Origin: an uncultured virus (IMG/VR IMGVR_UViG_2711768086_000002)
Taxonomy: Duplodnaviria; Heunggongvirae; Uroviricota; Caudoviricetes
Direction: 5' to 3' (one strand)
DNA: 64,000 nt
Virus record (IMG/VR): IMGVR_UViG_2711768086_000002
The translations under genes were made by a program, and so were the position numbers. Below, in pieces: positions 26,718 through 44,714 of this stretch (positions within the stretch are counted from its first letter, which is position 1; every line of letters begins with the position of its first letter). The notes below the pieces were generated by a model, which was not told the origin of the DNA, made no database searches, and saw nothing but the letters and a program-made list of their open reading frames with translations.

Positions 26718-26719
26718 GG

Positions 26720-27809: not shown

Positions 27810-27853
27810 GATCCGACCCTAGGAGCCGCGACGGACAGTACTGGTGGCGCAGG

Positions 27854-28276: not shown

Positions 28277-28719
28277 GCGGTGCCTCCCGTTTTCTGGATA
28301 CGCATCCAGGTGGCTCGAAGCACCTCAACGGTGCCGGTCTCGCCAGGGTCGAGGACCGTCCAGACCCTCCCGATCGCGGCGCTGTCCTCGCTGTGCACAA
28401 CGGTCACCAGGTCACCGGTTGAGGCCACGGGCGCGGACAACGGTGTGAACAGGGTGTAGCGGGCGTCGCCGTCGTCGCGGTACGGCTGGCCTTCAAGCCG
28501 CAGCACGATGCCCGGGCCTCCTGCGGGACGGTGCGCGCCTGGGCCCTCGTACACAGTGACGTCGGGCCCAGGCACGTACTGTCCGGTGGCGGGGTCGAGG
28601 ACCATCGGCCCGGGTCGGTAGATCCGAACGGTCTCGATCAGGAGCTTGCGCTCCACCACGGCGGCCACCGAGGCCGGGAGGATGCTGCTCGTAGCAGTTG
28701 GGGGTGTGGGGCTGCTCAT
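28273..28719 (-). CDS. Head-closure / DUF6093-like protein, paralog 1
   Basis: ETVRIYRP...DPATG...VYEGPG...TPLSAP. Confidence 0.65.
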   Translation of the reverse strand: MSSPTPPTATSSILPASVAAVVERKLLIETVRIYRPGPMVLDPATGQYVPGPDVTVYEGPGAHRPAGGPGIVLRLEGQPYRDDGDARYTLFTPLSAPVASTGDLVTVVHSEDSAAIGRVWTVLDPGETGTVEVLRATWMRIQKTGGTA

Positions 28720-28770
28720 GATTCGAGCGTAGGTAGCGTGTCGGACACCCCCAGGCGAGGCGCTCGTCAG

Positions 28771-29364
28771 TCAGTGACTTGGCGCCAACGCAAGGCGCTC
28801 GATGCGAGCCGCGAGTTCCGGGTCGTCAGCGGTCCTTCCCAGGCGACATGAAGTGAGAGTTCGTACTGAGTTCGCCTCGACACCGCGCATGCTCATGCAG
28901 AGGTGCTCGCCTTCGGCGTAGACCGCGACGTCATCGGTGCCGGCCTGCTTGGCGATGTCCTCCGCAACGGCCTGCGTGATCCGTTCCTGGAGCTGTAGAC
29001 CGTGAGTGTGGACGCGCAGCTGGCGCACCAGCTTGGACAAGCCGAGGACTTGGGCTTGGGGAACATAGGCAATCGAGACGGTGAGGTGGAACGGCAGCAA
29101 GTGGTGCTCGCACAAGCTCCAGGCGCGGATGCCGCGCAGCATGACGAAGTCGCCGTGATTGCTGGTGTGGTTGAAGGCTGTGCCGAGGGTGCCGGGGTCA
29201 CGGTTGAGGAACTCGGTCCACCACGCGGCGACCCGGCGCGGTGTGTCGACGAGTCCTTCGCGCTCTGGGTCCTCGCCGAGGGCGAGCAGCAGCTCGCGGG
29301 TGAGGCTCTCCACGCGTCGGGTGTCGACGGGTCGTCGAGCGGGCGAAGGTATGGAGGTGGCCAT
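28771..29364 (-). CDS. folE: GTP cyclohydrolase I
   Basis: GL.DTP.RVA, SLCEHHLLPF, GLSKL.R, LQERIT, HLCMSMRG. Confidence 0.95.
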   Translation of the reverse strand: MATSIPSPARRPVDTRRVESLTRELLLALGEDPEREGLVDTPRRVAAWWTEFLNRDPGTLGTAFNHTSNHGDFVMLRGIRAWSLCEHHLLPFHLTVSIAYVPQAQVLGLSKLVRQLRVHTHGLQLQERITQAVAEDIAKQAGTDDVAVYAEGEHLCMSMRGVEANSVRTLTSCRLGRTADDPELAARIERLALAPSH

Positions 29365-29436
29365 TGAGGCTCCTTCGAGAAAAGTTCGACTGACAGCCGT
29401 GCCTGACAGGCCGGCGTGTGTCCGCGACGCTCGTCG

Positions 29437-30054
29437 TTAGAGCTGAGTCGCGGCGGGGAGTCGGCCAAGAATTGGCAGGGCTGTGAATGCCTCGGCGTAG
29501 GTCGTGCCGATCCGAGCACCCCAGAGCCGGCCGAGATGTTCGGCCATGGGGCCGAAGTGGGTTTCAATGGGCTGTGAGGCGTGCTGCCGCAGTGCCTGCA
29601 TCTTGGTGCTGAACGTGGCCGTGGTGTCCACGATCGTGTCCGCCCGTACCGGGCCGTCGAGCGTGAGTGAGTTGTAGGTGTCGCAGGTGTACAGCCGCTG
29701 AGGGTGTCCGGTGCTGATTACGGCGTCGGGCAGTGCGGCAAGTACGGCCTCGCTGATCCGCCGGTGGTCCGGATGGACGTCGCTGATGGGGTGAGTGACC
29801 ACGACGTTGGGGCAGAGGTCGATGAGGAGCCGGTGAATCTCTGCGGGATCGAGCAGCTGGGCCTGGTGGAGGAGCGCGCCGAGCGCCTTCGTGCCGGCCG
29901 CAGCCTCGGAGTCCCGCTCGGCACTGTGGGACGGTACGGCGACGGTCACCGGTGCGTGGGCTGCGTGATGGGCGAGTGTGCCGCCCGCCCACAGTTCGGC
30001 GTCGTCGGGATGCGCGAAGATGGCCAGGACGGAGCCTGGGAAGGTGGCAGTCAC
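29437..30054 (-). CDS. PIG-L/LmbE family N-deacetylase
   Basis: AHPDD, HPDH, HASQ and AEAF motifs; GTGA overlap. Confidence 0.9.
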   Translation of the reverse strand: MTATFPGSVLAIFAHPDDAELWAGGTLAHHAAHAPVTVAVPSHSAERDSEAAAGTKALGALLHQAQLLDPAEIHRLLIDLCPNVVVTHPISDVHPDHRRISEAVLAALPDAVISTGHPQRLYTCDTYNSLTLDGPVRADTIVDTTATFSTKMQALRQHASQPIETHFGPMAEHLGRLWGARIGTTYAEAFTALPILGRLPAATQL

Positions 30055-30923
30055 CACAGCCCCAGCTTCTCGACGACTTCGGCGGCCTTGGGCAGCTTCG
30101 GCGTGGGGTGGCCGGTCGGGGTGAGTGGCACGTCGAGGTCGCGGTTCATCCGGATCATGGACTGCCAGCGCAGGACGTTGGGCCAGGCTGCCTCCACGGC
30201 CTTGCCCTTGGCTCCGGTGAGTCGGCCGGAGGCGAGCAGACCGTCGAGCTGGAGGCCGTCGGCGAGGAGCGTGGCGGCGGCCTTGGGGCCGATGCCCTTG
30301 ACGCCGGGGATGTTGTCGGCGGGGTCGCCGGTCAGGGCCCGGTAGTCCGGCCACTGCTGGGGCGTGACGTGGTACCGCTCCTGGACTTCCTGCGGGGTGA
30401 TCAGGCGGCGGGTGGCCTTCCGAGACCGGTTGATGATCTGGATTTGATCGGAGAGCAGCTGGTAGTAGTCGGCGTCGCGGGACATGATCCGTACCGGCCG
30501 GGTGGCAGCTGCCCGGGTGGCGAGGGTTCCGATCACGTCGTCAGCCTCGGCGTCGTCGATCTCGACCCATCGGATGCCGATCAGGTCGAGTCCGTCCTTG
30601 ACCGGCTGGAGGAACTGCAGGGGCTTGAGAGCTTCGGGGGTGCTCTCCCGGTTGGCCTTGTAGGCGGCGTCCTCGGTGCTGCGCTCGGCGCTGCCCTGCT
30701 GGCCGTCGAAGACAGCGATGACCTCGGGTGCGGCCACGTCAACGTCATCGCGCAGGGTCGCACCGAGCAGCGCGAAGAAGGCAAAGAGGCCGGTCAGCTC
30801 GCGGGTCTTGTCGCGGGAGAAGATGGCAGCGGGAAAGCCAAAGGTGCCCGCCCACAGCACATTGAAGGCGTCAACGAGAAGCAGTGGAGCGGGGGTTGCA
30901 GGCTGGGTGCGTTCGGGCATCAC
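30051..30923 (-). CDS. 5'-3' exonuclease (Pol I N-terminal / FEN-like)
   Basis: LLVD, FDG, YKANR, EADDVI, SRDAD, LTGDPADNIPGVKGIGPK. Confidence 0.92.
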   Translation of the reverse strand: MMPERTQPATPAPLLLVDAFNVLWAGTFGFPAAIFSRDKTRELTGLFAFFALLGATLRDDVDVAAPEVIAVFDGQQGSAERSTEDAAYKANRESTPEALKPLQFLQPVKDGLDLIGIRWVEIDDAEADDVIGTLATRAAATRPVRIMSRDADYYQLLSDQIQIINRSRKATRRLITPQEVQERYHVTPQQWPDYRALTGDPADNIPGVKGIGPKAAATLLADGLQLDGLLASGRLTGAKGKAVEAAWPNVLRWQSMIRMNRDLDVPLTPTGHPTPKLPKAAEVVEKLGLW

Positions 30924-32059
30924 GAGACCGCCTCTAGGAAGAGTTCAGCGATCCGGTGGGGGGCGAAGTCGCCTGCGCGCCGGTACACGGCCTGTGTAGT
31001 CGCGCCGTACAGTATGGCATCGTCCAGCAGCGCGGTTGCGGTCTTCAGGAGGCCCTGGGGCCCGGTGTCGTGGTCGGTGAGCAGGTGTTCGCCGTGGCCG
31101 GTGGGCTCGATGAGGTCGGGCAGGTTGCCGACGCGGTAGGCGATGACAGGTGTGCCGACGCTCATGGCTTCCAGCGCGACGAGGCCGAAGGTCTCCTTGT
31201 GGCTGGGCACGATGACCGCGGCGGCGCCGGCGAGCCAGTCGGGCACGTCGGACCAGGGCAGTGCACCGCGGAGGCTGACGTTGGGGCACTGGTCGGCGAG
31301 GTGTCGGCAGCGATCCAGCAGGTGGCCCTGAGAGCCGTCCTGGTCCTCGAACCCGGCGGAGGCGAGGGCGATCTCCACGGTGCGGTCGAAGGTGGGGAGG
31401 GCTTCGAGGAGATCGGCAACGCCCTTCTCGGGGCCGAGGCGGGCCAGCACGCGGATAGGGGCGTTTCGTCGCAGTGCCTCGCGACGGGCTGCATGTGGTG
31501 CGGGACGGGCGGTCGGGTCGCTCATCAGGGCGTTGGGGACAACCTGGCCGAGCACAACCCAGTCGAATGCCTGCTGCTGAACGCTGCGGGAGGGGAAGAG
31601 GATGCGCGTCGCGCGGGCGACGGCGGGCCCGGCGTCGACGATGTGTGGGGGGACGTGGACGGCGAGGGCTCGGCGGACGTGGGCGGGGAACTCACCGCGC
31701 AGGCGGCCGAGGCCCCACAGGGCGTCGGTGAACAGGACGGTGTCGATGCGGTGGCGCAGGGCCATGGCGTTGATCTGTGCCGCGAGTGATCCGTCCTGAC
31801 GGGTGACAGCCTTGCGCAGGGCCTGGTCGTCGCACGGGAAGGTGATGCCCGAGATGGTCAGGTGGTCGACGGTGACCCCGGGCAGGAGTTGAGAGTCGGA
31901 GTCGGGTTGGGGGGCGGCAGTGGCGATGACGGGGCGGTGGCCGGCCTGGGCGAGGCCCAGGGCGAGCGCGGCAGTGGCTCGTTCGATGCCGGCGGGGGCG
32001 TCAGGTGTCCAGGAGGCCAGGACGAGCAGCACTCCCCGGGATGTGGCGGTCGTGGTCAC
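30920..32059 (-). CDS. Glycosyltransferase family 4 (GT-B)
   Basis: RLGPEKG and PSHKETFGLVALEAMSVGTPVI. Confidence 0.9.
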   Translation of the reverse strand: MTTTATSRGVLLVLASWTPDAPAGIERATAALALGLAQAGHRPVIATAAPQPDSDSQLLPGVTVDHLTISGITFPCDDQALRKAVTRQDGSLAAQINAMALRHRIDTVLFTDALWGLGRLRGEFPAHVRRALAVHVPPHIVDAGPAVARATRILFPSRSVQQQAFDWVVLGQVVPNALMSDPTARPAPHAARREALRRNAPIRVLARLGPEKGVADLLEALPTFDRTVEIALASAGFEDQDGSQGHLLDRCRHLADQCPNVSLRGALPWSDVPDWLAGAAAVIVPSHKETFGLVALEAMSVGTPVIAYRVGNLPDLIEPTGHGEHLLTDHDTGPQGLLKTATALLDDAILYGATTQAVYRRAGDFAPHRIAELFLEAVS

Positions 32060-32622
32060 GGGGTCGCCACCTTCTTCGGCACTGGCAGCTGCCGGGTGTC
32101 GCCGGCGTGGGTGGTCTCCCAGGGGAAGACGACCCAGTTGTCCACGTCCCAGATCCATCCGTCGGGGCCCTCGGTGCAGCCCGCGTTGCGGCACAGGGCC
32201 AGCGTCTTCGGGACGGCCGAGCTGCCGAACCTTTGGCTCAGAGCATGGGCGACGGCGGTGAAGGTGGCACCGGAACCGGCGATGTCGTCGACCAGGAGCA
32301 CGGTTCCGTCGAACCGGTCCGGCAAGGTGTCGGGCAGGATCACGCTGACGTTGCCGGTGGCCTGCTGCCAGAGGGCGTCTGTTCGGTTGTGCCGGGCGGA
32401 GACGTTGTACAGCGGGACGTTCAGGCAGTCGGCGATGACGGTGGCCGGCCTGGTGCCGCCGTTGGCGATGCCGACGACGGCGGTCACCGGCGGATCGAAG
32501 CCAGCAGCGGACTCGGCGAGGAGGCGGGCGGCGTCGTGGCACTGGTAGTGGGTGGGGGCGTAGGGCTCGCTTCGGGTGAAGAGCCGCCGCCCGCCAGTGG
32601 GCTGCCGGGTGGTGTCGGTCAC
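32056..32622 (-). CDS. Type I phosphoribosyltransferase
   Basis: VVGIANGG, VLLVDDIAGSGATF, WVVFPWE. Confidence 0.9.
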   Translation of the reverse strand: MTDTTRQPTGGRRLFTRSEPYAPTHYQCHDAARLLAESAAGFDPPVTAVVGIANGGTRPATVIADCLNVPLYNVSARHNRTDALWQQATGNVSVILPDTLPDRFDGTVLLVDDIAGSGATFTAVAHALSQRFGSSAVPKTLALCRNAGCTEGPDGWIWDVDNWVVFPWETTHAGDTRQLPVPKKVATP

Positions 32623-33566
32623 GCTGCACTCCCGGCGGTGGGCAGCTGCAGGTCCTCGGGGCCAGTGACGGGCAGGAAGGCGCTGATGCTGGTCGCACCG
32701 CCCGTGTTGCGCCAGGCGTAGCCGTCCGCACGCAGGACCGTGAAGCCGTCGGCGCTGCCGCGGGTACGCAACCGCACCCGCACTCCGTCGGGGACAGTGA
32801 GGGCATCGAAGGTGGCACGGGCCTCGTCGTCGGTGAGCATCTGCTGTTCGGCGATGGCCTTGCCTTCGCCGATGGGCAGCATCTGCAGGAAGGTGACGCC
32901 GCCGACGCCGAGCTTTGCGGCCTGCTCCAGCAGTTCCTGGGATTCGTGGTGGGTGGAGCGCATCAGCACCATCTGGAACTGGACTCGGATGCCTTCGTCA
33001 ACGGCAGCCCGGGTACCGGAGATCGCGCGGCGATAGCTGCCTTCTCCGCGCCAGGCGTCGTGGGTGGCCTCGGTGGCGCCGTCCAGGGAGACACGGATGG
33101 CGTCGAGCGCACCGGCCAGCTCGGAGGCACGACGGGCGAGGTGCCAGCCGTTGGTCGTGCAGCTGACCACCGCACGCCCACCGGTGCGGATCGCGCGGGC
33201 AAAGTCGGGCAGGTCGCGCAGCAGCAGCGGCTCGCCGCCAGAGATATCCACGCCCAGGACACCGGAGGCAGCGATGTGCCCCGCCAACGTGCGGCGCTCC
33301 TCCGCGGTGGACTCGCGCACACCCTTGTCGTCCAGGCAGTGCGGGCAGGCGAGGTTGCAGCGCACGATCGGCGAGAAGCACATGCTCAGCGGCGCTTTCG
33401 GGTTGAGCTGGCCGGGCTGGGCCTCCGGCCAGGCGGCGACCTCCTGCTCGTCGAGGCCGACGCAGCCAAGCGGTACGGGCCGCAAGGGCAGGTGGTTGGA
33501 GCCGACTGCCGGGTCGTGGACGACAGTCGTGCCGTCGATCTCGGCGGCGGCGAAGGTGCGGATCAT
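32619..33566 (-). CDS. Radical SAM enzyme
   Basis: CNLACPHC, SGGEPLL, TTNG, VSLDG. Confidence 0.9.
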   Translation of the reverse strand: MIRTFAAAEIDGTTVVHDPAVGSNHLPLRPVPLGCVGLDEQEVAAWPEAQPGQLNPKAPLSMCFSPIVRCNLACPHCLDDKGVRESTAEERRTLAGHIAASGVLGVDISGGEPLLLRDLPDFARAIRTGGRAVVSCTTNGWHLARRASELAGALDAIRVSLDGATEATHDAWRGEGSYRRAISGTRAAVDEGIRVQFQMVLMRSTHHESQELLEQAAKLGVGGVTFLQMLPIGEGKAIAEQQMLTDDEARATFDALTVPDGVRVRLRTRGSADGFTVLRADGYAWRNTGGATSISAFLPVTGPEDLQLPTAGSAA

Positions 33567-34597
33567 GCGGTGATCACCTCGGCGTCGGTCAGGAGCTTGT
33601 CGGTGGCAGTGGCAAAGTCGTGGCCGCGCCCGGTGGGGGCGGGCCGGGCGAGCAGGGCCCGGTAGTGGGCGAGCGTGGCGGGCCAGGCGGTGAGCTTGCT
33701 ATGCCACTGGGCGGCGGCATCCGGCGGGTCGAGGTGGTAGCCGACGGCCTGGCGCAGCGGGATGACCAGGCAGCCGGCGGCGATCAGCGCGGCGCCGAGG
33801 TGGGTGTCCTCCATGCCCCAGCCGATCCGGCCGAACTCCTCGGCGAAGCCGCCGATGTCCACCAGCCGCTCGCGGGGTACGCCGAGCAGCGCCGTGACGG
33901 CCATCCGGGGTAGGTCCCAGTCGTAGTAGAACCGCCCGTATCCGAGGTTCTGGAAGTCGTCGGTGGCGTCCAGGGGACGGCCGTCCAGTGGGTCGGTGAG
34001 CGTGATGCCGGAGTACGGCAGCGTGGTGTTGGTCGGTGGCGTCCAGGTGACGCGGTGGTCGGCGGCCAGTTGCGGCGCTCCTTCGGGCATCACTGGACTG
34101 CCAGATCCGCCCGGGTGGGGAAGGTTGTGTCGGAAGCCGGTCAGGACGGTCTCCGGCTGGGCGCGGGTAGCGAAGTCCGCGAGCACGTGCTTGGGCAGCA
34201 CCATGTCCGCGTCCATGAACAGCAGGTTCTCGCTCTGTGCGAGACGGGCGCCGACGTTGCGGGCCGCGCCGGAGCCGGAGCGGGACACCAGCCGAACGGC
34301 AGTGGTGACTGCGGGGTGCCGGCGGGCGATCTCGAAGGTGGTGTCGGTCGAGGCGTCGTCCACGACGATCACCTCCACCGGCCCGGCCGTGTGCTGCGCC
34401 GCAAGCGCGTCCAGCACCGTCGGTAGGGCGTAGGCGACGTTGCGGGCCGGAAGCACAACTGCCAGCGGGCGACCGACGGCGGCGTGCGCCGGGGTGGGCT
34501 GGTGCCAGCCGAGGCCGGTCCGGCCGTAGAACGCGCCGGTTAGGTGGCTGTGGTCGTTGGGGCGGGCTTTGAGCGTGTCGGCGAGCGTGCCGGTCAC
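33563..34597 (-). CDS. Glycosyltransferase family 2 (GT-A)
   Basis: VVDDASTD, ARNVG, FMDAD, GGF.E.F..WG.ED. Confidence 0.9.
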   Translation of the reverse strand: MTGTLADTLKARPNDHSHLTGAFYGRTGLGWHQPTPAHAAVGRPLAVVLPARNVAYALPTVLDALAAQHTAGPVEVIVVDDASTDTTFEIARRHPAVTTAVRLVSRSGSGAARNVGARLAQSENLLFMDADMVLPKHVLADFATRAQPETVLTGFRHNLPHPGGSGSPVMPEGAPQLAADHRVTWTPPTNTTLPYSGITLTDPLDGRPLDATDDFQNLGYGRFYYDWDLPRMAVTALLGVPRERLVDIGGFAEEFGRIGWGMEDTHLGAALIAAGCLVIPLRQAVGYHLDPPDAAAQWHSKLTAWPATLAHYRALLARPAPTGRGHDFATATDKLLTDAEVITA

Positions 34598-35037
34598 GGC
34601 CACCTCCATTCGTCAAGGACGGCTGTGGCCTCGGCCCAGCCGTGGGGGTCGTGGACCCAGTGCAGGGCGGGCCTGGCCGGGTGGGCGAGCAGGTCGGTGA
34701 GGAGGACGAGGTAGGTGGGTTCCAGGACGAGTAGGACCCGGTTCGGGGCGCCTGTGGTCTGGAACTCCCGCTCCAGCTGCTCGGTGACGCGCGGTCGTAG
34801 CTGTTCTGCGCGGGGGATCGTGAGCTGGCGGTCGTAGGGCGGGATCGGGGTGTCGGCGTGCACGAGGCCGTGTTCGGCCGACAGGAAGCGGATGCGGTCC
34901 CGTGCGTGCCGGTGGCCAGCGAACCGTGCATGGAGGTGCGGGGCGATGCCGCCGGTGTACCGCTCCAGGGCGGGCAGCGGCCTGGACTCAGGGGCCTTGC
35001 GCCGGGAGCAGCCCGCTATCAGCAGGTCGGTGATCAT
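34594..35037 (-). CDS. DUF6884/YaaA-like protein
   Basis: GCSRRK...PALERYTG...FLSAEHGL......PYD pattern, recognised from memory. Confidence 0.65.
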   Translation of the reverse strand: MITDLLIAGCSRRKAPESRPLPALERYTGGIAPHLHARFAGHRHARDRIRFLSAEHGLVHADTPIPPYDRQLTIPRAEQLRPRVTEQLEREFQTTGAPNRVLLVLEPTYLVLLTDLLAHPARPALHWVHDPHGWAEATAVLDEWRWP

Positions 35038-35594
35038 GCCGTCCTCACCACCCGCATGCCGATGCCGGGCGATCCCAGCTCGGCTGGAGCCGCGTTGAGG
35101 AACGTGCACCGCGCGTACAGCGGCAGGGAGTTGTAGGAGCCGCCACGGATGACGAAGCCGCCGCCGATGGTCGGGCTGGAGGTCCACTCCCAGCACGTGC
35201 CGCCCATGTCGAACAGCCCAGTCGGTGTCGCCCCATCCGGGTAGGTGCCCACCGCGGTGAGGCCACCGGGGCCGCCTCGTAGGTTGGCCCGGCCGGCGCC
35301 CGGTTCCTCATCCCCCCACGGGTAGAGCCTGCGCTCGGGCCCGGAGGCCGCCCACTCCCACTCCACTGAGCGGGGCAGGCGCCCGCCGAGGTCGGCGGCC
35401 AAGCGCGCCGCCTGAGCGTGAACGAGCCCGGTCTGCGGGAGCGGGGCGTCGCCGTGGCCGACCTGGGCCAGGGTGATCAGCGTCGCCGTCCATACGAGGT
35501 CGGGCACCTTCACCGGGCGCTGCCGGTCACCGAACAGGCACGTTCCGCCCGGCACGGGTACCCACACCACGGGCTGCGTCGTGCTGCTTTCCAT
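35034..35594 (-). CDS. FGE-sulfatase (SUMF1 / C-type lectin fold) domain protein
   Basis: RLP...EWE.AA.G...R.YPWG, GL.DM.G..WEW, RGGS, G.R. Confidence 0.9.
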   Translation of the reverse strand: MESSTTQPVVWVPVPGGTCLFGDRQRPVKVPDLVWTATLITLAQVGHGDAPLPQTGLVHAQAARLAADLGGRLPRSVEWEWAASGPERRLYPWGDEEPGAGRANLRGGPGGLTAVGTYPDGATPTGLFDMGGTCWEWTSSPTIGGGFVIRGGSYNSLPLYARCTFLNAAPAELGSPGIGMRVVRTA

Positions 35595-35608
35595 GATGCG
35601 TCCTCCCA

Positions 35609-36391
35609 TCATCCGGCGATCAGGAACAGGTCTTCGGCGTTGACGCCGGAACGGACCTGGCTCTTGCCCGGGTGGGGTTCGAGGCCGCACCGGGACAAGG
35701 ACCGCGTGACCGCGTCCATGGCCTCGCGGGCCTGCTCCGCGTCCTGGCAGAACAAGCAGTAGTTGTCGGCGAACCGAGCGACCCGTCGCCCGGCCAGGGC
35801 CGCGTCCACGCGGGAGAGCCGGAGATTGATCAGTAGCGGTGCCAGCGCGGTGCCCGGCACGATCGGGTACGGCAGCGGTTCCAGGACCCGCCGGAAGTGG
35901 CCAAGGAAGGTGCCGTCGGCGACGTGCTCGGCCAGCCAGTCGGTGACCTCGGCCGCGCTGGACCCGGCTGAGGTCTGGCGCACGTCCACGTCCGCCACCC
36001 ACCGGTAGCCGGCTTGCAGGTGCCGGTCGGCGTCCCGCAGGGCCGTGATCCGGTTGCGGCCGGCCCGGTAGCCGGACACCCAGTCCGCGAATGCCCTCTG
36101 CTCCAAGATCGGTTCGATGGCGTTGCGCATCGCCCGCTGCACCACCCGGTCGGCGACGGTGGGGATCACCGCCGTGAACTCCTTGCCGGTGTAGGCAGTG
36201 ATCGACACCTCCCGCACTGGGCTGGGTTGCCAGGTGCCGGCGCGCAGCTGCTCAGCCAGTTCGGCGAGGCGGCCGGGCATGTCGGTGCGGAACCGTGCCC
36301 AGCTCATCCCGTCCGCTCCTGGTGCCCCGCCCCGGCGCATGCACGCGTGAGCCGCCCGCTTGAGGTGCTTGGGCTCGACGAGGAACGACAT
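35609..36391 (-). CDS. Group II intron-like reverse transcriptase, degenerate and lacking thumb/X domain
   Basis: APGADG (RT0), IPTVADRVVQRA (RT2), SGYRAGR (2a), WVADVD (3), VPGTALAPLL.N (4), RFADN (5), GL..HPGKS (6); the frame is also open from GTG 36559. Confidence 0.85.
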   Translation of the reverse strand: MSFLVEPKHLKRAAHACMRRGGAPGADGMSWARFRTDMPGRLAELAEQLRAGTWQPSPVREVSITAYTGKEFTAVIPTVADRVVQRAMRNAIEPILEQRAFADWVSGYRAGRNRITALRDADRHLQAGYRWVADVDVRQTSAGSSAAEVTDWLAEHVADGTFLGHFRRVLEPLPYPIVPGTALAPLLINLRLSRVDAALAGRRVARFADNYCLFCQDAEQAREAMDAVTRSLSRCGLEPHPGKSQVRSGVNAEDLFLIAG

Positions 36392-36432
36392 CAGCGAATT
36401 TGCCCGCAGCGAGGCGGAGTTGGATAAGCTGG

Positions 36433-36543
36433 GCACAGCCCGAGTGGCAGGCAGGTTCCTGCTCCCCCCTCTACACGCTTGGCCGCTAACCCACACGCGC
36501 GGCCTCGGGGAGCCGGAAGGACCACCCCACTCGGGCGTTGTGC
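36433..36543 (-). ncRNA. Candidate structured RNA upstream of the RT
   Basis: Nested inverted repeats: GCCCGAGTGG/CCACTCGGGC plus GCACA/TGTGC, TTCC-GCTCCCC/GGGGAGC-GGAA, GGCCGC/GCGGCC. Confidence 0.55.
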
Positions 36544-36548
36544 TGTCC

Positions 36549-37268
36549 TCACCGGCCACGTTCGTCCTCCCAGAGCAGCACGTGCAGGCGGGTGCTGAGA
36601 TTCCAGCCGCGCTCCAGTACCGCGTCGGCGAGCTTCCGCATTCCGCCGATCACCGCGTCGCTGTTCGTCCCCTCCGGCATCACCCATGTGTCGGTGAGGG
36701 CGAACTCGGCTACCAGCCGTCCGACTTCGTCCAACTCGGCGACGTCGCTCACGACGAACTTGAAGCGGGCCTTTCCACAACCGGCCAAAGCCCGGAGAGC
36801 CTTCGGGCTGGTCCTGCGGTCGCTCGGCGCAGCGAAGCTGGCGAGTTTAGGCGAGACGTTGAACGCCTCCACCAGCTCGACCACCTCGGGCAGCGGCGCG
36901 ATCGTGCCGTTGGTCTCGATCTCGATCCCGTATCCGGGCAGCAGACGCAGCAGCGGCAGCAGGGCACGCTGTTGCATCAGCGGCTCGCCGCCGGTGACGA
37001 CCAGGTGCTTCCCCGGCTGGCTCGTCAGCCAGTCGGCGAGCTGCTCGGCGGTGTAGTGCTGAGCAACGTTCGCGGGGTCGAATCGGGCGCGGTCCCAGGT
37101 GTCAGGGGTGTCGCACCGCGGGCAGTGCAGGTTGCATCCCCACAGGCGCAGGAAGTACGTGAGCTGGCCGGTGCTGGCGCCTTCGCCCTGAAAGGTGGGG
37201 CCGAATCGCTCCCTCACGAGTAGCGGCCGCTCCACAGCCGGCGGAAGCAGCACGGTGGGGGCGGTCAC
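36549..37268 (-). CDS. queE: 7-carboxy-7-deazaguanine synthase
   Basis: TFQGEG...G...FLRL.GCNLHCPRCDT, TGGEP, ETNGT, VSPK, RLH. Confidence 0.95.
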   Translation of the reverse strand: MTAPTVLLPPAVERPLLVRERFGPTFQGEGASTGQLTYFLRLWGCNLHCPRCDTPDTWDRARFDPANVAQHYTAEQLADWLTSQPGKHLVVTGGEPLMQQRALLPLLRLLPGYGIEIETNGTIAPLPEVVELVEAFNVSPKLASFAAPSDRRTSPKALRALAGCGKARFKFVVSDVAELDEVGRLVAEFALTDTWVMPEGTNSDAVIGGMRKLADAVLERGWNLSTRLHVLLWEDERGR

Positions 37269-37657
37269 CGTGCCACCTCGAACTCGGCCATGGACGTCGG
37301 CGTCTCCGAGACACGGACCGCGGACAGCTGGCCGGGGATGGCCGACTCGACGTTGTCGATGAACCAGCCGGCCAGGTACTCAGCCAGGTTCTCCGACGTC
37401 GGCACGATCGGCAGGACCTCGTTGAGCACGCGGTGGTCGAGCGTTGTGTCGATGTACGCCTTCACCGGGCCGAGGTCTCCGAAGTCCGTAACGAACCCGG
37501 GCCCATCCAGCTCCTGCGCGGTGAGAATGAACTCGACCTCGTAGGAGTGACCGTGCATGCGCGCGCACTGGTGACCGGGGGCCAGGCCGGTGAGGAAGTG
37601 GGATGCCTCGAACCGGAATCGCTTTCCGATCCGGTGACGGCCGCGCACCGTGGTCAT
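37265..37657 (-). CDS. queD: 6-carboxytetrahydropterin synthase
   Basis: FEASH...C.RMHGHSY...DFG...LDHR.LN...PTSENLA...VSET. Confidence 0.95.
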   Translation of the reverse strand: MTTVRGRHRIGKRFRFEASHFLTGLAPGHQCARMHGHSYEVEFILTAQELDGPGFVTDFGDLGPVKAYIDTTLDHRVLNEVLPIVPTSENLAEYLAGWFIDNVESAIPGQLSAVRVSETPTSMAEFEVAR

Positions 37658-38358
37658 CGGCCCGCTCCCGTCGCGTACTCGGTCGGGTCTTCGACGCCCG
37701 CGACCTCGAACGCTTCGCGACGCTCGATGCACGTCCCGCACGTGCCACAGTGCACCCGGCCGCCCTTGTAGCAGGACCAGGTCCGCTCGAACGGCACGCC
37801 GACCTGGCCCCCGACGGTCACGATGTCCGCCTTGGTCAGGGCCAGGAACGGCGCGATGAGGTCGAAGCCCTCCACGTGGAACCCGTCGGTGGCCGCGCGA
37901 GCTGTCTCGGCGAACTGGTCGAAGAACTCGCCGCGGCAGTCCGGGTAGATCGGGTGGTCACCAGCATGTGCACCGAACGCCACCGCGTCGGCCCCAGCGG
38001 CCACGGCTACACCGACCGCCACCGAAAGCATGATCATGTTCCGGTTCGGCACCACCGTGGCACGCATGCTCTGGTCGCTGTAGTGCCCGTCGGGCACCTG
38101 CACTGCCGTGTCGGTCAGCGCGGACCCGCCGAGGAGCCGGCCGACGCTGGTCAGATCGACCACCTCGTGGCTGGCATCCAGAAGCTCACCGACGGCTCGG
38201 GCGTAGTCCAACTCCTTGCGGTGACGCTGCCCGTAGTCGAAGGACAGCAGCGTCACGCGGCTTCCCAGGCTGGCGAGCCAGTACGCCACGGTGGTGCTGT
38301 CGAGTCCACCGGATGCGATCACCACAGCGTGACCCGGCGGCTTTGAAAGCTTGATCAT
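37654..38358 (-). CDS. queC: 7-cyano-7-deazaguanine synthase
   Basis: SGGLDS, FDYGQRH..E, VPNRN, YPDCR, TWSCY...HCGTCGTC..R. Confidence 0.97.
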   Translation of the reverse strand: MIKLSKPPGHAVVIASGGLDSTTVAYWLASLGSRVTLLSFDYGQRHRKELDYARAVGELLDASHEVVDLTSVGRLLGGSALTDTAVQVPDGHYSDQSMRATVVPNRNMIMLSVAVGVAVAAGADAVAFGAHAGDHPIYPDCRGEFFDQFAETARAATDGFHVEGFDLIAPFLALTKADIVTVGGQVGVPFERTWSCYKGGRVHCGTCGTCIERREAFEVAGVEDPTEYATGAGR

Positions 38359-38381
38359 CTCCTACGTTCCCTTGCTGTAGT

Positions 38382-38444
38382 CCTCCGTCACCGGAGGGCG
38401 GAGTGAGTCCGTTGCTCAGGGGCAACGGCGTGCGCGGAAGCGCA
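38382..38444 (-). promoter_or_regulatory. Three tandem hairpins in the queC leader
   Basis: Perfect stems of 5, 7 and 6 bp (38431-44, 38409-28, 38382-97). Confidence 0.45.
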
Positions 38445-38490
38445 TGTTCAATCGACGCGAGAGGTATCGGCCCCGTAGCTGCGGCTCGCC

Positions 38491-39018
38491 CTACCGCGCG
38501 ACTTGGGAACCGTGATCGCGGGAGGCCACTGCGAAGTGAGCCTCCTGACCTTCGGCTTCCCGGTCATTCGTCCGGATCGTGACCAGCTGCGCGAGAGCTC
38601 CCGGGTTCGGCACCATCAGCAGCATCCTGGCGACGGCCAACCCCGCACACACCGTTCGCAGATGGTGAAGCGCGACAGCCGGAAGTGCTCCACGCAGCCG
38701 ATCTACCGAGTCCAGGAAGGAAGCGCAGATCGCCAGCACCTGACTTGCACCCACCACTTCGTCGCGATGGCCATGACGATCGATCACTCGCTGGGCAGCA
38801 GCGCCGCACTCCCGAGCCAGCTCACCAACTCCCGGGTCCTCCTCGACGAGCGCGCCCCACCATTCCAGCTCGGCCGCCACGTACATCAAGGCCCGTTCTC
38901 GCGAGAAGCGCGGAAGTCCATTCGTGGTCGTGGGAACGGGCCAGTCGAACGCTGCCGACATCGAACTGGCGTCTCCGCCAAGCGCGGGCCAGGCCCGACG
39001 CAAAGTCAGATCGGCCAT
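38491..39018 (-). CDS. Hypothetical protein
   Basis: RBS before MADLTL; overlaps the upstream gene. Confidence 0.5.
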   Translation of the reverse strand: MADLTLRRAWPALGGDASSMSAAFDWPVPTTTNGLPRFSRERALMYVAAELEWWGALVEEDPGVGELARECGAAAQRVIDRHGHRDEVVGASQVLAICASFLDSVDRLRGALPAVALHHLRTVCAGLAVARMLLMVPNPGALAQLVTIRTNDREAEGQEAHFAVASRDHGSQVAR

Positions 39019-39512
39019 GCCGACTCCCTCCCTGGGAGTACGGGCTCTGCGCCCGTGCCGACCTGCGCAGTGAACACATACACCGCTTGGTCGTCGCGCA
39101 CCGACACCGCGTAGCTCTCGCCTGCGGCGAGAGCCGCCATGGCGCTTGCCTGCGCCTCCTCGTCGTCCAGCCAGGCCCGCGCCGGCTGGCACTCTGCGGG
39201 GTCCAGCTGGTCTGCCAGCTGCGACATGCGTAGCCGCACCCACCGGACCGCCAGCCGAGCGTCGGCCGTCGGATGAGAGCCGAACAGGATTGGCCGTCCA
39301 GCGCCGTGTGCGTAGGCAACCGCGTAGCACCAGTAGCCAAGTCGCCTGCGCTCTGGTCCCGCAAGGCATCCCAGAGCAGATCCAGTTCGCGGCCCGCCGA
39401 GCTGCGGCCCGGCTGGCGGCCGACTCGCCGGACGCGTCGGCGGACGCGTCCTCGGCGAGGCCCTGCGGCGACCACTGCCGAGGCCCAGCGCGCGCTTCAC
39501 TAAGCCCCTCAT
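39006..39512 (-). CDS. Conserved streptomycete-type hypothetical protein
   Basis: YWC...LAVRWVR....LADQLDP...WL.D pattern; ATGA overlap with the HATPase gene. Confidence 0.6.
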   Translation of the reverse strand: MRGLVKRALGLGSGRRRASPRTRPPTRPASRPPAGPQLGGPRTGSALGCLAGPERRRLGYWCYAVAYAHGAGRPILFGSHPTADARLAVRWVRLRMSQLADQLDPAECQPARAWLDDEEAQASAMAALAAGESYAVSVRDDQAVYVFTAQVGTGAEPVLPGRESAWPI

Positions 39513-39958
39513 GCCGCCTCCTCCGGACACTTGCCGCTGTCCCGCAGCAGCACCCTCGCCCACACCGTCTTGCTCCTTTTCGTCGTCACGATGTCCATGT
39601 CGAGCGCCAGCCTTTTGACCAGCGGCAGACCTCGTCCGCTCTCGCCTCGGACGACCAGCTGCTTGGGTGGAAGCAAGTCCGGCCGAAAGTCGTCCACTTC
39701 GACCCGGCAGTCGCCGTCGATCTCCTGCAACCGCAGGCGTACGTCGTCACCCGGGCTGCTGGCGTGCCTGATCGCGTTCGTCAGCAGCTCTGAAACGATG
39801 ATCAACAGGTCATCCACGTGGCTCCCGGTCCAGCCCCAGCGAGCTACCTGGGACCTCACTTGGCGGCGAGCCAGTCCGACCGATGCCGGCCACGCGGTGA
39901 ACGTCATCTCCCACTTGCGAAGGCCCTGTCGGGGCTGGCTGACGGTCGCCACGTGCAT
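39509..39958 (-). CDS. RsbW-like HATPase (ATP-binding regulatory protein)
   Basis: ARRQV, VSELLTNAIRH, EVDD, ESGRGL.LV, KTVWA. Confidence 0.9.
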   Translation of the reverse strand: MHVATVSQPRQGLRKWEMTFTAWPASVGLARRQVRSQVARWGWTGSHVDDLLIIVSELLTNAIRHASSPGDDVRLRLQEIDGDCRVEVDDFRPDLLPPKQLVVRGESGRGLPLVKRLALDMDIVTTKRSKTVWARVLLRDSGKCPEEAA

Positions 39959-40052
39959 CGCTCCCATGGTCAGGAGCGACTGCGCGCTCCGGTACTGGTT
40001 CGCTTGCGGACACCCAGGGTTCCGCTCCCGCCGCAGACCAGCCAGGACGCCG

Positions 40053-40074
40053 AGCGGCCATTCAGCGGCCATTC
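40053..40074. repeat. Tandem 11-bp direct repeat in a divergent promoter region
   Basis: AGCGGCCATTC x2. Confidence 0.55.
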
Positions 40075-40178
40075 GATGGCCAGCTGGCATCCGCGGTGGT
40101 GGAGTTTTCGTCCGATCCGGTCACTCTGGGCCGTAGCACCTCTACCGTGAGCAAGGTCAAGAACCTCAGGGGGTCACG

Positions 40179-41489
40179 ATGAGAGCGCCCGGTAACGAGC
40201 ACCTTTATGCGGCAAGGGTGTCCCGGGGATGGTTTTCCCAAGAGAAGGCCGCAGAGGGCATCAGTCTGGCGGGTCAGGATGAGCTCAAGGACGACAGCTT
40301 CAACGTGAGTGTCCGGACTTACCGGCGGTGGGAGAGCCCCACACCCCCGTGGCCTCGCCCCGACTACGCCACGGCGTTACGCGCCGCGTTCGACCGCGGT
40401 CCGGAGCACCTAGGCTTCGTGCCTCCAGGAGGCGTCGGCGTCGAGCCGAGTGGACCAACACTCGACTCAGAAGTCATGATCCCGCGTGTGAACCGTCGCG
40501 AAGCACTCGCCGCCGGCGCCGCCGCTCTCGGCCTGCCCTGGCTGTCCTCCACCAACTCCGCTCCGACCGGCCGTCACGAGTTACGGATCGGCGACGAGGA
40601 AATCAACGACCTCCGCGCCACAGCACTCGACCTCGACGCCATCGACCAGCGGTTCGGCGGCGATCGGCTGTGGCGGTCTGCCCGCAAGCACCTGTTGTGG
40701 GTCCACCACCTGATAGACCAAGGCTCGTACACCGATGCGGTCGGACAGGAGCTCCAAGGCCTCGCTGGCGAACTGACAACGTCTCTCGGGTGGTTCTGCT
40801 ACGACGCGGACCAGCAGGCCGAGGCACGGGTCTACTTCTCCGAAGCCCTCAACACCGCGATGCTCGCAGGCAACGCGATTCTCGCCACTCGGACACTCTC
40901 GAACATGGCCAGACAGAGCGTCGACCTGGGGAAGCCACGCGAAGCCGTGCGGTTCGCTCAGATCGCGCAGGGTCACGCGGCCAAATGGCAGGCCCCAGCC
41001 CGGGTGTCAGCACTGCTGGCCATCCGCGAGGCCCAGGGCTACGCGCACATGGGCAACGAAGTGGCCTGCTCAACGGCCATCAAGCGTGCCTGGCAGCAAT
41101 TCGGCCGAGGCATCAGTGATCGCGACCCGGACTGGGTGGGTTTCCTCAACGAAGCCGAACTGACGTGCCTTGAGGGAATGTGCCGCCTGGATCTTGGGCA
41201 GCACAAGCGATCAGTACGCCTGCTCGAACGATCTGCTGCACTCCAGGACATCGAGCACTCTCGGAACCGGGGTATGTGCTTGGCACGGCTGTCCTACGCG
41301 GCCGTCCAGGACCGCGATCTCGATCGGACAGTGGCAGCTGCTCAGGAGTCCCTGCGCCTCATCCAGGGCGGCATGACGTCCACAAGGAACAAGCAGCAAC
41401 TCGTGCTCGTCAGGGACAGCCTCGCCCCGTTCCACAAGAGCCCCGAAGTACGACACACCGCAGAGCTCCTCACTGCGAACATCGCGTGA
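40179..41489 (+). CDS. XRE-HTH plus TPR-like transcriptional regulator
   Basis: SQEKAAE...VSVRTYRRWES...PWP HTH; RR..L linker; helical C-terminal domain; two TTA codons. Confidence 0.85.
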   Translation: MRAPGNEHLYAARVSRGWFSQEKAAEGISLAGQDELKDDSFNVSVRTYRRWESPTPPWPRPDYATALRAAFDRGPEHLGFVPPGGVGVEPSGPTLDSEVMIPRVNRREALAAGAAALGLPWLSSTNSAPTGRHELRIGDEEINDLRATALDLDAIDQRFGGDRLWRSARKHLLWVHHLIDQGSYTDAVGQELQGLAGELTTSLGWFCYDADQQAEARVYFSEALNTAMLAGNAILATRTLSNMARQSVDLGKPREAVRFAQIAQGHAAKWQAPARVSALLAIREAQGYAHMGNEVACSTAIKRAWQQFGRGISDRDPDWVGFLNEAELTCLEGMCRLDLGQHKRSVRLLERSAALQDIEHSRNRGMCLARLSYAAVQDRDLDRTVAAAQESLRLIQGGMTSTRNKQQLVLVRDSLAPFHKSPEVRHTAELLTANIA

Positions 41490-41510
41490 CCATGCGAAGG
41501 AGAGTTACCC

Positions 41511-42071
41511 GTGAACGACCTTGAACTGCGCCACTACCGGGGCACCGCGGCGAAGGAGGTACTCGATGAGCTCGTGGCGGTCTACACCGTGGTCTACGAC
41601 GTTCCCCCGTACATCGGCGACCCGTTTTTCTCCGTCGAGTCGTTCGCCGAGCGCCTCCAGGGCGCGCTGGAGATGAACGGCTTCGAGACCGTCACCGCCC
41701 GGCTGGCCGGTGAGATGGTGGGCCTCGTGCACGGCGTCACCCTTCCCGCCGACCGGGCGTGGTGGACCAGCCTCGGCGAGGCCCGGCCGGCGGAGGCCCT
41801 CGCAGCTGCCGAGGCTGGTCAGGTCTTCTGGCTCCGGGAGCTCATGGTCCTCCCCAAGTACACCGGCCAGGGGATCGGCCGACGGCTGCATGACGAAGTG
41901 GTCGCCGGCCGTGAAGAGCCGTGGACTGCGCTGACGTGCATCTTCGACAACGAGCCTGCCCGCAGTGCCTACCCCAGGTGGGGTTACGAGGTGATCGGCG
42001 GGCGCATCAAGCACGCTCCTGAATCCCCGGAGTACGACGCCATGATCCTGCGACCTGCTCAGGGTCGATAG
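41511..42071 (+). CDS. GNAT acetyltransferase
   Basis: ELMV.P...GQGIG..L, N.PA...Y..WGY. Confidence 0.88.
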   Translation: MNDLELRHYRGTAAKEVLDELVAVYTVVYDVPPYIGDPFFSVESFAERLQGALEMNGFETVTARLAGEMVGLVHGVTLPADRAWWTSLGEARPAEALAAAEAGQVFWLRELMVLPKYTGQGIGRRLHDEVVAGREEPWTALTCIFDNEPARSAYPRWGYEVIGGRIKHAPESPEYDAMILRPAQGR

Positions 42072-42870
42072 CGGGCCTCGGCCCGAAGGCCCGGCGGCAC
42101 CGGGGGTGAGAGATCGGCCAGTCGGCCGCCTCGTCCAAGGTGCGCAGCGTCCGGGTCGCCTTGTCCGGGTCGGTGTGGGAAGTCCAGCCGCAATCGGGCC
42201 CGTCGAAGACCTCGACGTACGTGACGCCGTTCTCACGCGCCTGGTTGAGGGTTCCTGCGTTGTAGGCCACCGCGCTCTTCGCGAGCGTGGCGGCCTCGGC
42301 CCAAGCCCTGATCGGCACCCTGGCACCGTTGCGGTAGATGACGTACTCGAGGTGGCTGCTGGCGGCCAGCCGGTCGGCGAGCGCGCGGGCGGCCTGCCTC
42401 GCGGTCACGTTCCCGGTCGTGAGAAGGGGGACCTCGCGTCGCGCTGCCGCGCGGGCGGCGCGGTAGAAGGCATCGGCCATCCGGCCGGTCTCCTGGCTTC
42501 GTCGCAGGAAGTCGCCGTAGGAGTCGGCGGCCAGTGCTCGAAGGGCTTCACGGTGGATCAGTGTCCAGGTGAAGCGGGCACCGGAGGCAGAGGCAGCCGC
42601 CGTCGCCCCCTGCTCGTACAAGTGCGGCAGCTGGCGGCCGACGAACTGTGCAGCTTCGTCGTCCACAGCCCTGTGGAAATCCTCAATGGCCCGTTTGAAC
42701 TCCTCCAGCGTGGCGAGGACGTGGGGCGCACGCCAGTTGTCTGCGAACGCGGCGATCACGGCGGCCTGGCGGGCGTGGAGCCGCTGCCAGGCGTCCTCCA
42801 GGACCGCTGCCACCCGACGGGCGACCTCGTCAGCGTCGCCGGGTACCAGCGGCGGCCAGTCGTACGACAT
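42007..42870 (-). CDS. Minor capsid / head morphogenesis (MuF-like) protein
   Basis: C-terminal V.DG.DC...HPRCRR; position after the capsid genes. Confidence 0.75.
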   Translation of the reverse strand: MSYDWPPLVPGDADEVARRVAAVLEDAWQRLHARQAAVIAAFADNWRAPHVLATLEEFKRAIEDFHRAVDDEAAQFVGRQLPHLYEQGATAAASASGARFTWTLIHREALRALAADSYGDFLRRSQETGRMADAFYRAARAAARREVPLLTTGNVTARQAARALADRLAASSHLEYVIYRNGARVPIRAWAEAATLAKSAVAYNAGTLNQARENGVTYVEVFDGPDCGWTSHTDPDKATRTLRTLDEAADWPISHPRCRRAFGPRPAIDPEQVAGSWRRTPGIQERA

Positions 42871-42876
42871 GGCCGG

Positions 42877-43200
42877 CTACCGGGCGCGCCGGGCCGGGAC
42901 GAGCGCGGTGACGTCCAGGTGCGGTACTGCGTCGTCACCGGCCGCGTCGTCCGGGCCCGGGTTGGCCTGGATCGCCGCGAGCTGCCTCTCAAGGCCGGTG
43001 AGGTTGGCGGTCTGGTCCATGGTGACCACGCCGTCAACAACGAGCCGTAGCGGCTCGGCGAGCAGCTTGGCGCGGCGCTCCGACAGCACTTCCAGCGCGA
43101 CGGCGCGGGCACTGTGCAGGCGCTCGTACCGGCCAGTGAGTTCTGCCAGGTCCATGGGGCCGAGCTGAGCGAGCAGCCAGGCCCGAACGGTGTCGTCCAA
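42877..43200 (-). CDS. Head-tail connector-like protein
   Basis: TTG start after GGAG; position. Confidence 0.6.
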   Translation of the reverse strand: MDDTVRAWLLAQLGPMDLAELTGRYERLHSARAVALEVLSERRAKLLAEPLRLVVDGVVTMDQTANLTGLERQLAAIQANPGPDDAAGDDAVPHLDVTALVPARRAR

Positions 43201-43224
43201 GGGAATCTCCTCGGGGGTGTGAGT

Positions 43225-43255
43225 GAGGCCCGGCACCGTGCCGGTGCCGGGCCTC
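43225..43255 (-). terminator. Hairpin after the capsid genes
   Basis: 13-bp perfect stem GAGGCCCGGCACC/GGTGCCGGGCCTC. Confidence 0.55.
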
Positions 43256-43267
43256 GTCTGGGTGGCG

Positions 43268-43480
43268 CTACTCGGGGTCGATCCAGCGGATGGTCGTTGC
43301 TCCGCCGTGGCCGTGGATGGACTCGGCCATCTCCAGGGACGGCCACACGACTGTGGACGGCCGGTCGCCGAGCCACTGCACAACGGCGATGCCGGCGCTG
43401 AACAGCACGCCCTCGGCAACCAGTCCGGTGCCGGAGACGCCCGACACGTCGACCGCTCGGTCCAGTACGAACCTACGCAT
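43268..43480 (-). CDS. Conserved actinophage small protein
   Basis: F.L.R..DVSGVSGTG.VAEG..F...HGH.G.T pattern. Confidence 0.7.
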   Translation of the reverse strand: MRRFVLDRAVDVSGVSGTGLVAEGVLFSAGIAVVQWLGDRPSTVVWPSLEMAESIHGHGGATTIRWIDPE

Positions 43481-43652
43481 CGGTGACCGTTTCCTGCTCC
43501 TGGTCCCCCGGCTCGTCGTCGGGCTCCCAGGCATCAGGGTTGGTGATCAGAGCGGCCACCTCTGGTGCGGGCTCATCCCCTGGCTGGAGGACGAGCCGCT
43601 CGCGGGTGACCGGGTGGTCGAGGTGCACGGCGGCGGCCAGACGGGCGCCCAT
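43473..43652 (-). CDS. Small capsid-associated hypothetical protein
   Basis: L.PGDEP...A.LITNP.AW; coupled to the capsid gene. Confidence 0.6.
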   Translation of the reverse strand: MGARLAAAVHLDHPVTRERLVLQPGDEPAPEVAALITNPDAWEPDDEPGDQEQETVTDA

Positions 43653-44701: not shown

Positions 44702-44714
44702 CGGTCAACTCCTG

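Follow-up and report, generated by a model that had tools for sequence, protein, structure and literature searches.

A covarying hairpin element, likely transcribed as an antisense RNA, in a G2L cluster-4 reverse transcriptase cassette

Introduction

The multicomponent G2L cluster-4 (GII-LB) cassette was described in 2021, and a defence role was proposed for it (Gonzalez-Delgado et al. 2021, PMC8632793). G2L reverse transcriptases (RTs) are defined by the absence of an intron RNA structure, and the passages on the cluster-4 cassette in that article name no RNA for it (PMC8632793). An RNA dedicated to this cassette matters in that the RTs of the group are defined by lacking one, and in that no substrate has been proposed for the cassette since 2021.

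Retrons combine a short RNA with paired ends, an RT and accessory enzymes; the C-terminal thumb of the RT recognises the RNA, and the msDNA is primed from a 2'-OH. Class 2 defence RTs work with ncRNA templates, in DRT10-type systems by way of a template loop that has an A-B-A' repeat 3' of a boundary stem. The RTs of class 2 DRT systems belong to UG families (PMC12632851). The RNAs of UG27 are covered by a genome-language-model preprint whose main text does not mention queuosine, preQ or sulfatase and whose supplements could list the present locus (10.64898/2026.09.22.753630). RT-Cas1 has been described as thumbless, yet adding short tails to RNA 3' ends (10.1101/2023.09.01.555893).

Comparison of the locus with described systems

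The cassette analysed here lies in the window, meaning the whole 64,000-nt stretch of uncultured virus DNA, to which all coordinates and strands refer. Its gene set corresponds to that of G2L cluster 4 in comprising QueC/D/E, GTP cyclohydrolase, two glycosyltransferases, a 5'-3' nuclease, LmbE/PIG-L, a phosphoribosyltransferase (PRTase), a radical SAM enzyme, a YaaA-like protein, an FGE-sulfatase and the RT, whereas QueA, which PMC8632793 names for cluster 4, was not among the 18 window proteins scanned. The RT is akin to the RTs of group II introns and CRISPR systems and comes without an intron RNA, in keeping with the G2L definition; the cluster-4 assignment rests on the gene set and this kinship, as matched to the published description. 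The cassette itself is already published, and the covarying RNA is the addition made here. Relative to the published cluster 4, the present analysis adds a covarying RNA of approximately 99 nt with its own candidate promoter box, dual coding of that RNA with the RT leader, an RT whose pocket is remodelled, and variant loci that encode a carbamoyltransferase or amidotransferase and show no que genes on the fetched DNA.

Like DRT2, DRT9, DRT10 and UG27, the locus has an RT beside a structured ncRNA candidate with a conserved loop, in an accessory location. Unlike the class 2 DRT enzymes, the window RT is group-II/CRISPR-RT-like, thumbless and carries an FADN motif, its RNA is usually antisense to the RT, and a nucleotide-tailoring pathway is attached. 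The best PADLOC match of the RT was a generic RT model (E 9e-40), with UG17 matching over 100 aa (E 3e-10), which does not place it in a UG family, and a by-eye look at the loop list and column counts revealed no A-B-A' repeat kept in one register. DRT10 (PMC12632851) is an analogue of the window system and not a family match. As in retrons, the ends of the window RNA pair as an inverted repeat (P1, below) and an RT is accompanied by accessory enzymes; unlike in retrons, the RT is not retron-like, has no C-terminal thumb and finds its closest structures among group II RTs, and the element is a single hairpin without separate msr and msd parts. The thumbless fingers-and-palm architecture is shared with CRISPR-associated RTs and RT-Cas1, which are among the nearest outside protein relatives; these relatives, however, keep Y/FADD, PQG and an FF or YF steric gate that the window RT does not, and the present cassette has no Cas1 and does have a dedicated RNA.

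The locus also resembles a DGR in placing an RT next to a C-lectin-fold (FGE-sulfatase) gene and an RNA. A DGR was nevertheless rejected: the template and variable repeats, which differ at adenines in a DGR, were not found, the RNA being absent from the 20 largest repeat families (out of at least 60) and its longest exact match elsewhere in the window being 11 nt, and, although the fold family of hypervariable targets is present, the C-terminus of the FGE protein is highly conserved over 51 homologues. DGR targets are hypervariable in this same portion of the C-lectin fold, and the conservation of the C-terminus here (35034-35150) suggests a fixed ligand. A group II intron, with its six-domain ribozyme including domain V and its maturase domain, was rejected as well (no Rfam match at E up to 5, no GIIM domain in the RT by domain search), as was a preQ1 riboswitch or other Rfam cis element, given no Rfam match, a likely location on the opposite strand, and presence at loci whose fetched DNA shows no que gene. 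The Rfam search covered window positions 28000-40000 and five homologous loci and gave no relevant match at E up to 5; the RNA was also not found in the literature searched, mostly at abstract level.

Hairpin structure and its conservation across homologues

The initial annotation had drawn the interval from the queE stop to an ATG at 36391 as the largest gap of the operon, and drawn in this way it is (157 nt, the next being 72 nt), but it is not a true intergenic gap, as the RT frame continues through the 157-nt stretch. The stems named within it were all recovered from the window letters: the outer stem (36438-47/36527-36) is a perfect 10 bp, the middle stem (36456-67/36507-18) has one mismatch, and the inner hairpin (36481-86/36499-504) has a perfect stem with a 12-nt loop. 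The proposed extension of the outer stem by GCACA/TGTGC is present past a 2-nt bulge, but its conservation is confined to a few close copies.

Judged by the window sequence alone, the fold does not stand out clearly from chance. For the 157-nt gap as a whole, z was -1.6 when folded as - strand RNA, a value matched by 16 of 200 shuffles, and -1.5 when folded as + strand DNA; the hand-picked 111 nt gave z = -4.5 for a stretch chosen after the fact. Relatives of the RT were therefore gathered for comparison, giving 78 loci (19 genome, 58 metagenome and 1 viral; designated L with a number). Full-length copies of the RNA were found in 60 of these in addition to the window; L044 has a partial copy and the copy in L043 is cut by the contig end. 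No RNA match was obtained in 16 loci, eight of which are contigs that begin at or inside the RT and five of which are 30-35% RT relatives without any other cassette gene. The RNA was not found in L056, L061 and L062, which are RT-family contigs with 2.7-3.7 kb upstream of the RT. Omitting four identical copies (L030, L031, L047, L072) and the two partial ones left 57 distinct copies for alignment.

The conserved unit in the homologue comparison is 36438-36536 (+ strand), a 99-nt structured ncRNA candidate supported by covariation and folding into one long hairpin with the 5' to 3' layout P1, conserved junction, P2, variable bulge, P3 and 12-nt loop. The P1 arms (36438..36447 and 36527..36536) pair with each other and enclose a junction whose purine-rich 5' side (36448..36456) holds G36451, A36453 and G36455, invariant in 57/57 copies, and whose 3' side (36518..36526) holds the invariant A36518, A36521, C36522 and C36525. 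The 5' arm of P2 (36457..36467) pairs with 36507-36517, the letters varying while the pairing stays, and is followed by an unpaired, variable bulge (36468..36480) of 7-16 nt among homologues. P3 (36481..36504, arms 36481-86/36499-504) closes a C/A-rich loop (36487-36498) that is 12 nt long in all 57 copies; A36495 is invariant within a near-invariant CAC, and the first seven loop bases are variable, with 36 loop variants among the 57 distinct copies. In the + strand reading, the hairpin has four invariant unpaired bases, every one of them an A.

Covariation among homologous loci, which the initial annotation had named as the check on the structure, was observed: pairing in the 57 distinct copies is kept by two-sided changes. 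Over the 31-pair structure, 92.8% of cells pair, compared with 79.6% in shuffles and 37-51% in slid controls. Two-sided changes occur at 23 of the 31 pairs, and none of 500 shuffles reached the observed pairing, in a test that is inflated by the relatedness of the copies. Covariation is seen on every helix, and the six position pairs that rank highest by mutual information all belong to the proposed structure. Matches of an RNA model to its own training copies are expected by construction; the independent test is L125, a locus found via its RT and lying outside the training set, which scores 75 bits. The hairpin is conserved and under selection. In 5/5 genomes searched, the RNA is single-copy and inside the cassette, and a pattern scan of viral contigs for the RNA away from the RT gave 45 candidates, of which the model confirmed none (best E 0.16).

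Three further structural readings were tried and rejected. A loop pseudoknot with a downstream CCAAC, seen by eye on the - strand of Kitasatospora and Streptomyces copies, lacks its motif in distant copies; a kink-turn in the junction would require an A that is kept in just 45/57; and a resemblance of P3 to domain V of group II introns fails in that the position expected to hold the triad is variable and there is no Rfam match. In L044 (1667-1733), the partial RNA abuts RT residue 16, and the RNA 5' end, promoter and RT start appear to have been deleted together.

Strand and promoter of the candidate RNA

A TAnnnT hexamer (TAAGCT, 36425..36430, + strand) precedes the first base of P1 by 7 nt, and no -35 box was found. 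The TANNNT motif is the -10 element at 80% of S. coelicolor transcription start sites (PMC4895711). On the window + strand, such a hexamer ends exactly 7 nt before P1 in 55/57 copies, against a background of 0.0011 per position; in the two misses, L051 and L054, a hexamer lies a few bases off under a poorly fitting anchor, and L125 also has TAnnnT at the 7-nt spacing. Read on the other strand, TAnnnT occurs within 30 nt of the far side of the element in just 1/57. A sigma-70 promoter and terminator scan found neither; it requires a -35 box and left the -10 box uncalled, and no clear U-tract follows P1.

The element and the box also move together. Both are flipped onto the RT strand in L050, L051 and L054 (54-58% GC), and in L055 and L125 they have relocated together to a site 1.7 kb away from the RT, where they run antisense to the FGE gene at its 5' end. 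Additionally, G-U cells outnumber A-C cells by 97:31 when the + strand is read (31:3 in P1, 41:25 in P2 and 25:3 in P3). Folding energy is lower for the opposite (-) strand in 48/57 copies, while the z-scores of the two strands are equal (-3.2 and -3.1).

The functional strand is likely the + strand, antisense to the RT, an assignment based on three observations: the promoter box, the excess of G-U over A-C, and the copies that are flipped or relocated. The candidate partner ncRNA of the initial annotation thus holds up as a structured, covarying element that travels with the RT cassette and is most likely an ncRNA, but its placement 5' of the RT on the RT's own strand does not, and the same three observations count against its other suggestion, a cis-regulatory leader of the RT. 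The probability that 36438-36536 is a real, separate RNA gene of approximately 99 nt on the + strand is put at roughly 0.88, and the element is likely a real, conserved, transcribed antisense RNA of an uncharacterised RT system. Transcription would start at approximately 36437-36438. With a 99-nt RNA now delimited, and its start and strand predicted, the system is open to direct testing.

The RT leader encoded opposite the RNA

The RT frame is open from GTG 36559, as the initial annotation noted, with one TTA codon. This start overlaps the end of queE and is preceded by GGAGG at 36566-70, giving a putative N-terminal leader of 56 codons (36392..36559, - strand) opposite the RNA and its promoter. 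Because the frame is kept, the stretch is very likely also translated on the - strand: from the RNA 5' end to the equivalent of Met 36391 it is in frame in 53/53 distinct loci that carry the element antisense just before the RT (range 28-73 nt), 45/53 have an RNA whose length is divisible by 3, and a loose test found an upstream start codon with a purine-rich stretch in 43/53. Four loci without an adjacent queE (L011, L013, L014, L019) have ATG where the window has GTG 36559. The ATG at 36391, previously taken as the RT start, is preceded by an H-S/T-L motif that belongs to the conserved RT N-terminus; the motif is kept in 47/47 homologues whose annotation extends that far and is seen again at the N-terminal end of long group-II-like RTs, and Met 36391 is therefore likely an internal methionine of the RT.

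The argument that the rare TTA favours a non-coding role does not carry, as the letters of this codon (36425-27), read on the complementary strand, form the first half of the antisense -10 box, and the frame is kept. Among 54 copies the codon is GTA in 29, ATA in 18, CTA in 4 and TTA in 3, so that 51/54 have a codon other than TTA. Genes can be placed under bldA regulation via TTA codons, and the one at 36425-27, the sole TTA in the cassette, may make this RT bldA-dependent.

The leader amino acids appear to follow the RNA, and not the RNA the leader, because GC content by codon position (0.59/0.73/0.73) is unlike that of the RT (0.71/0.52/0.90), the frame is broken in 8/53 copies that keep the fold (six show GTG or ATG inside the hairpin and two an in-frame stop), and L055 and L125 have this leader fused to FGE. 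Compensatory changes in the hairpin also alter leader amino acids. Searches of intergenic regions would miss such an RNA because its gene and promoter overlap the RT coding leader on the other strand.

Conservation of the cassette core

The cassette genes, named from Pfam and NCBIfam domain searches, all lie on the - strand. The queC-queD-queE genes (36549..38358) would provide preQ0 synthesis jointly with FolE, GTP cyclohydrolase I (28771..29364). Between the RT and FolE lie the FGE-sulfatase (C-lectin fold) protein (35034..35594), with its conserved rather than hypervariable C-terminus, a DUF6884/YaaA-like protein (34594..35037), a GT2 glycosyltransferase (33563..34609), the radical SAM enzyme (32619..33566), the PRTase (32056..32622), a GT4 glycosyltransferase whose start codon is not fixed (30920..32062), a stand-alone 5'-3' exonuclease or flap nuclease (30051..30923) and an LmbE/PIG-L deacetylase (29437..30054).

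In the 26 loci of at least 12 kb, RT, FGE, DUF6884, radical SAM, PRTase, GT4, exonuclease and LmbE genes are present in 26/26, GT2 and queC in 24, and queD and queE in 23; in L125, no radical SAM or PRTase match was found within 12 kb. In L050 and L054, a carbamoyltransferase gene is accompanied by one for a deaminase or an asparagine-synthase-like amidotransferase. The fetched DNA of L050, L051 and L054 shows no que gene, yet all three carry the RNA. Accordingly, the RNA appears to be part of the cassette core and not of the queuosine module.

The RT protein

The RT core (35609..36391, - strand; 260 aa) comprises fingers and palm with an FADN motif and a remodelled nucleotide pocket. Its predicted structure (pLDDT 88) has a TM of 0.82 to the GsI-IIC group II intron RT over its fingers and palm, the best solved-structure matches being RTs from group II introns, and the protein ends approximately 50 residues after the catalytic motif, without a thumb. 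GsI-IIC residue numbers below were counted from the alignment of the two proteins. The metal-binding positions, namely the equivalent of GsI-IIC D138 and YADD's first Asp, are retained in 120/120 close homologues, in which D134, D136, D209 and K70 of the RT do not vary; the fingertip carries an invariant Lys. Other pocket positions have changed: among the 120 close homologues the K69 equivalent is mostly A/S/T/N, the R75 equivalent is F/I/M/L, and the second Asp of YADD is Asn in 119; in the family, the F143 equivalent is Ser, Thr, Ala or Cys, and the Q of PQG is lost. In GsI-IIC, K69 and R75 are termed essential and F143 is described as an rNTP-excluding gate, and the F143A variant retains primer extension with non-templated addition approximately 40-fold lower (10.1101/2021.05.13.443781).

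A search of 1.8 billion representatives returned a small RT family, followed by RT-Cas1 fusions and intron-type RTs. The family forms one clade (100/99) in a tree of 40 selected rows, in which its sister group is not fixed. The RT was not found in those searched of 400 other genomes from the phylum of genome G001, and plasmids gave two records; the system is rare. At the RT C-terminus (35609-35640) is a near-invariant E-D-L-F-L-x-x-G tail, whose acidic residues could replace the ligand lost from YADD or bind a partner. A 271-aa thumbless RT, P0143, keeps the FF steric gate, has lost YADD and branches at the family edge, and may be an intermediate.

Proposed role of the RNA and alternative readings

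The RT is probably the binding partner of the hairpin RNA. The anatomy of the element, with a drifting terminal stem, an invariant-purine junction, a variable arm and bulge and a fixed loop, suggests a protein-bound RNA, and the RT would grip the conserved junction and the 12-nt loop. The template or primer role suggested earlier is plausible for the RNA, with an RT active site that is atypical. That the RT adds nucleotides on or from the hairpin to give a short modified-nucleotide product is a more tentative proposal, to which we give somewhat less than an even chance. One or a few ribo- or sugar-modified nucleotides would be added, either by copying the C/A-rich loop into a G-rich product, which would fit 7-deazaguanine from FolE/QueCDE and the PRTase, or by appending nucleotides to the RNA 3' end. 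Templated copying would be favoured over tail addition because the F143A change in GsI-IIC cuts non-templated addition, whereas the variable loop sequence counts against a constant copied product. The glycosyltransferases, deacetylase and radical SAM enzyme might then decorate the product and the 5'-3' exonuclease might remove the RNA, for a purpose that would likely be anti-phage or antagonistic. In favour of such a mechanism we count the conserved metal-binding Asp residues, the replaced F143 equivalent and the thumbless RT-Cas1 relatives that tail RNA; against it we count the losses at K69, R75, the Q and the second Asp, the RNA adjoining FGE in L055 and L125, and the three family contigs without the RNA. 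If it holds, RT-ncRNA systems would extend to a group-II-derived enzyme with a rebuilt pocket, tied to base- and sugar-modifying enzymes.

The fuller scheme, in which a thumbless RT loads modified nucleotides onto or off the ~99-nt RNA, the enzymes decorate them and the exonuclease frees a small product, is doubtful. Its chemistry would be 7-deazaguanine-based here and different in the variant cassettes, and such a pathway would parallel, in nucleic acid, the peptides that are ribosomally made and post-translationally modified.

The RT may instead be catalytically inactive. The RNA would then still be a real, separate gene, and a maturase-like scaffold would form with it a ribonucleoprotein that organises or gates the modifying enzymes, or the RNA would itself be modified, with no polymerisation. 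The loss of five pocket residues and of the thumb fits such a scaffold, as do the invariant RNA bases clustered in a junction that resembles a protein-binding site and the decay of one or both catalytic Asp residues in four distant representatives (P0123, P0128, P0135, P0136), some of which may be broken genes. The four residues invariant in all 120 close homologues argue against it, as does the retention of D136 and D209 in 10/11 distant cassette-locus RTs (the other, in L052, is frameshifted), and we regard a dead scaffold as unlikely, if the most serious rival.

It is improbable that the partner of the RNA is another core protein (the FGE/C-lectin, the YaaA-like DUF6884 or the 5'-3' exonuclease), with the RT adjacent by accident. 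The RNA co-occurs equally with these three genes, all of them in 26/26 long loci, it adjoins FGE instead of the RT in L055 and L125, and the FGE C-terminus is highly conserved; the RNA is, however, next to the RT in 56/57 distinct copies and in either orientation. RTs bearing RT0 are established RNA binders, which also favours the RT as partner.

Still less probable is antisense control in cis, in which the RNA would repress translation of whichever leader it overlaps, RT or FGE, in the manner of type I toxin-antitoxin pairs. Full complementarity to the first RT codons in 53 distinct loci, and to those of FGE in two, speaks for such control, but the sense-strand copies in L050, L051 and L054 keep both motifs and promoter box, and the junction and loop bases are constant whatever gene is overlapped, which antisense pairing would not need.

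A cis element on the operon mRNA, either a preQ0/preQ1-sensing or an RT-autoregulatory leader, or a single-stranded DNA hairpin, with the + strand not transcribed, has a very low probability. The position directly after queE in most loci and the lower folding energy of the - strand are compatible with an mRNA element, and a DNA hairpin would likewise tolerate G-T better than A-C; these are outweighed by the empty Rfam search, the -10 box on the other strand in 55/57 copies, the G-U asymmetry, the flipped copies, and the RNA at three loci whose fetched DNA shows no que gene. A protein-coding leader whose fold is a GC-rich accident, as the preserved frame might suggest, is the least probable reading, being largely refuted by covariation with compensatory changes that alter amino acids, by a leader that has no RT codon pattern and is fused to FGE in two loci, and by the copies that break the frame and keep the fold.

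Genomic setting and variant loci

The cassette (28771-38358) sits between prophage tail and head-tail genes (25637-28719) and head genes (42007-47855) in the manner of moron-like cargo; by PHROGs, the flanking genes include major head, portal, scaffold and major tail. At 39509-42071 it is flanked by genes for a histidine-kinase-like ATPase, a divergent TPR regulator of the NsdA family (40179-41489) and a GNAT, and NsdA-like matches also occur near the cassette in L004, L014, L018, L057 and L125. Upstream of queC, at 38494-39563, are two ORF stretches with no Pfam, NCBIfam, PADLOC or PHROG match and with relatives in L002, L003 and L078.

Variant tailoring modules, comprising carbamoyltransferase, cytidine-type deaminase, asparagine-synthase-like amidotransferase and WbqC genes, are found at L050:2001-5859, L054:4129-5796 and 9841-11532, and L062:1799-2641. 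A 1183-aa ORF without a Pfam match lies upstream of the sense-orientation cassette in L051 (1279-4827). In L061 (20-3903), a McrBC-like pair directly precedes the family RT, which supports a defence-island setting.
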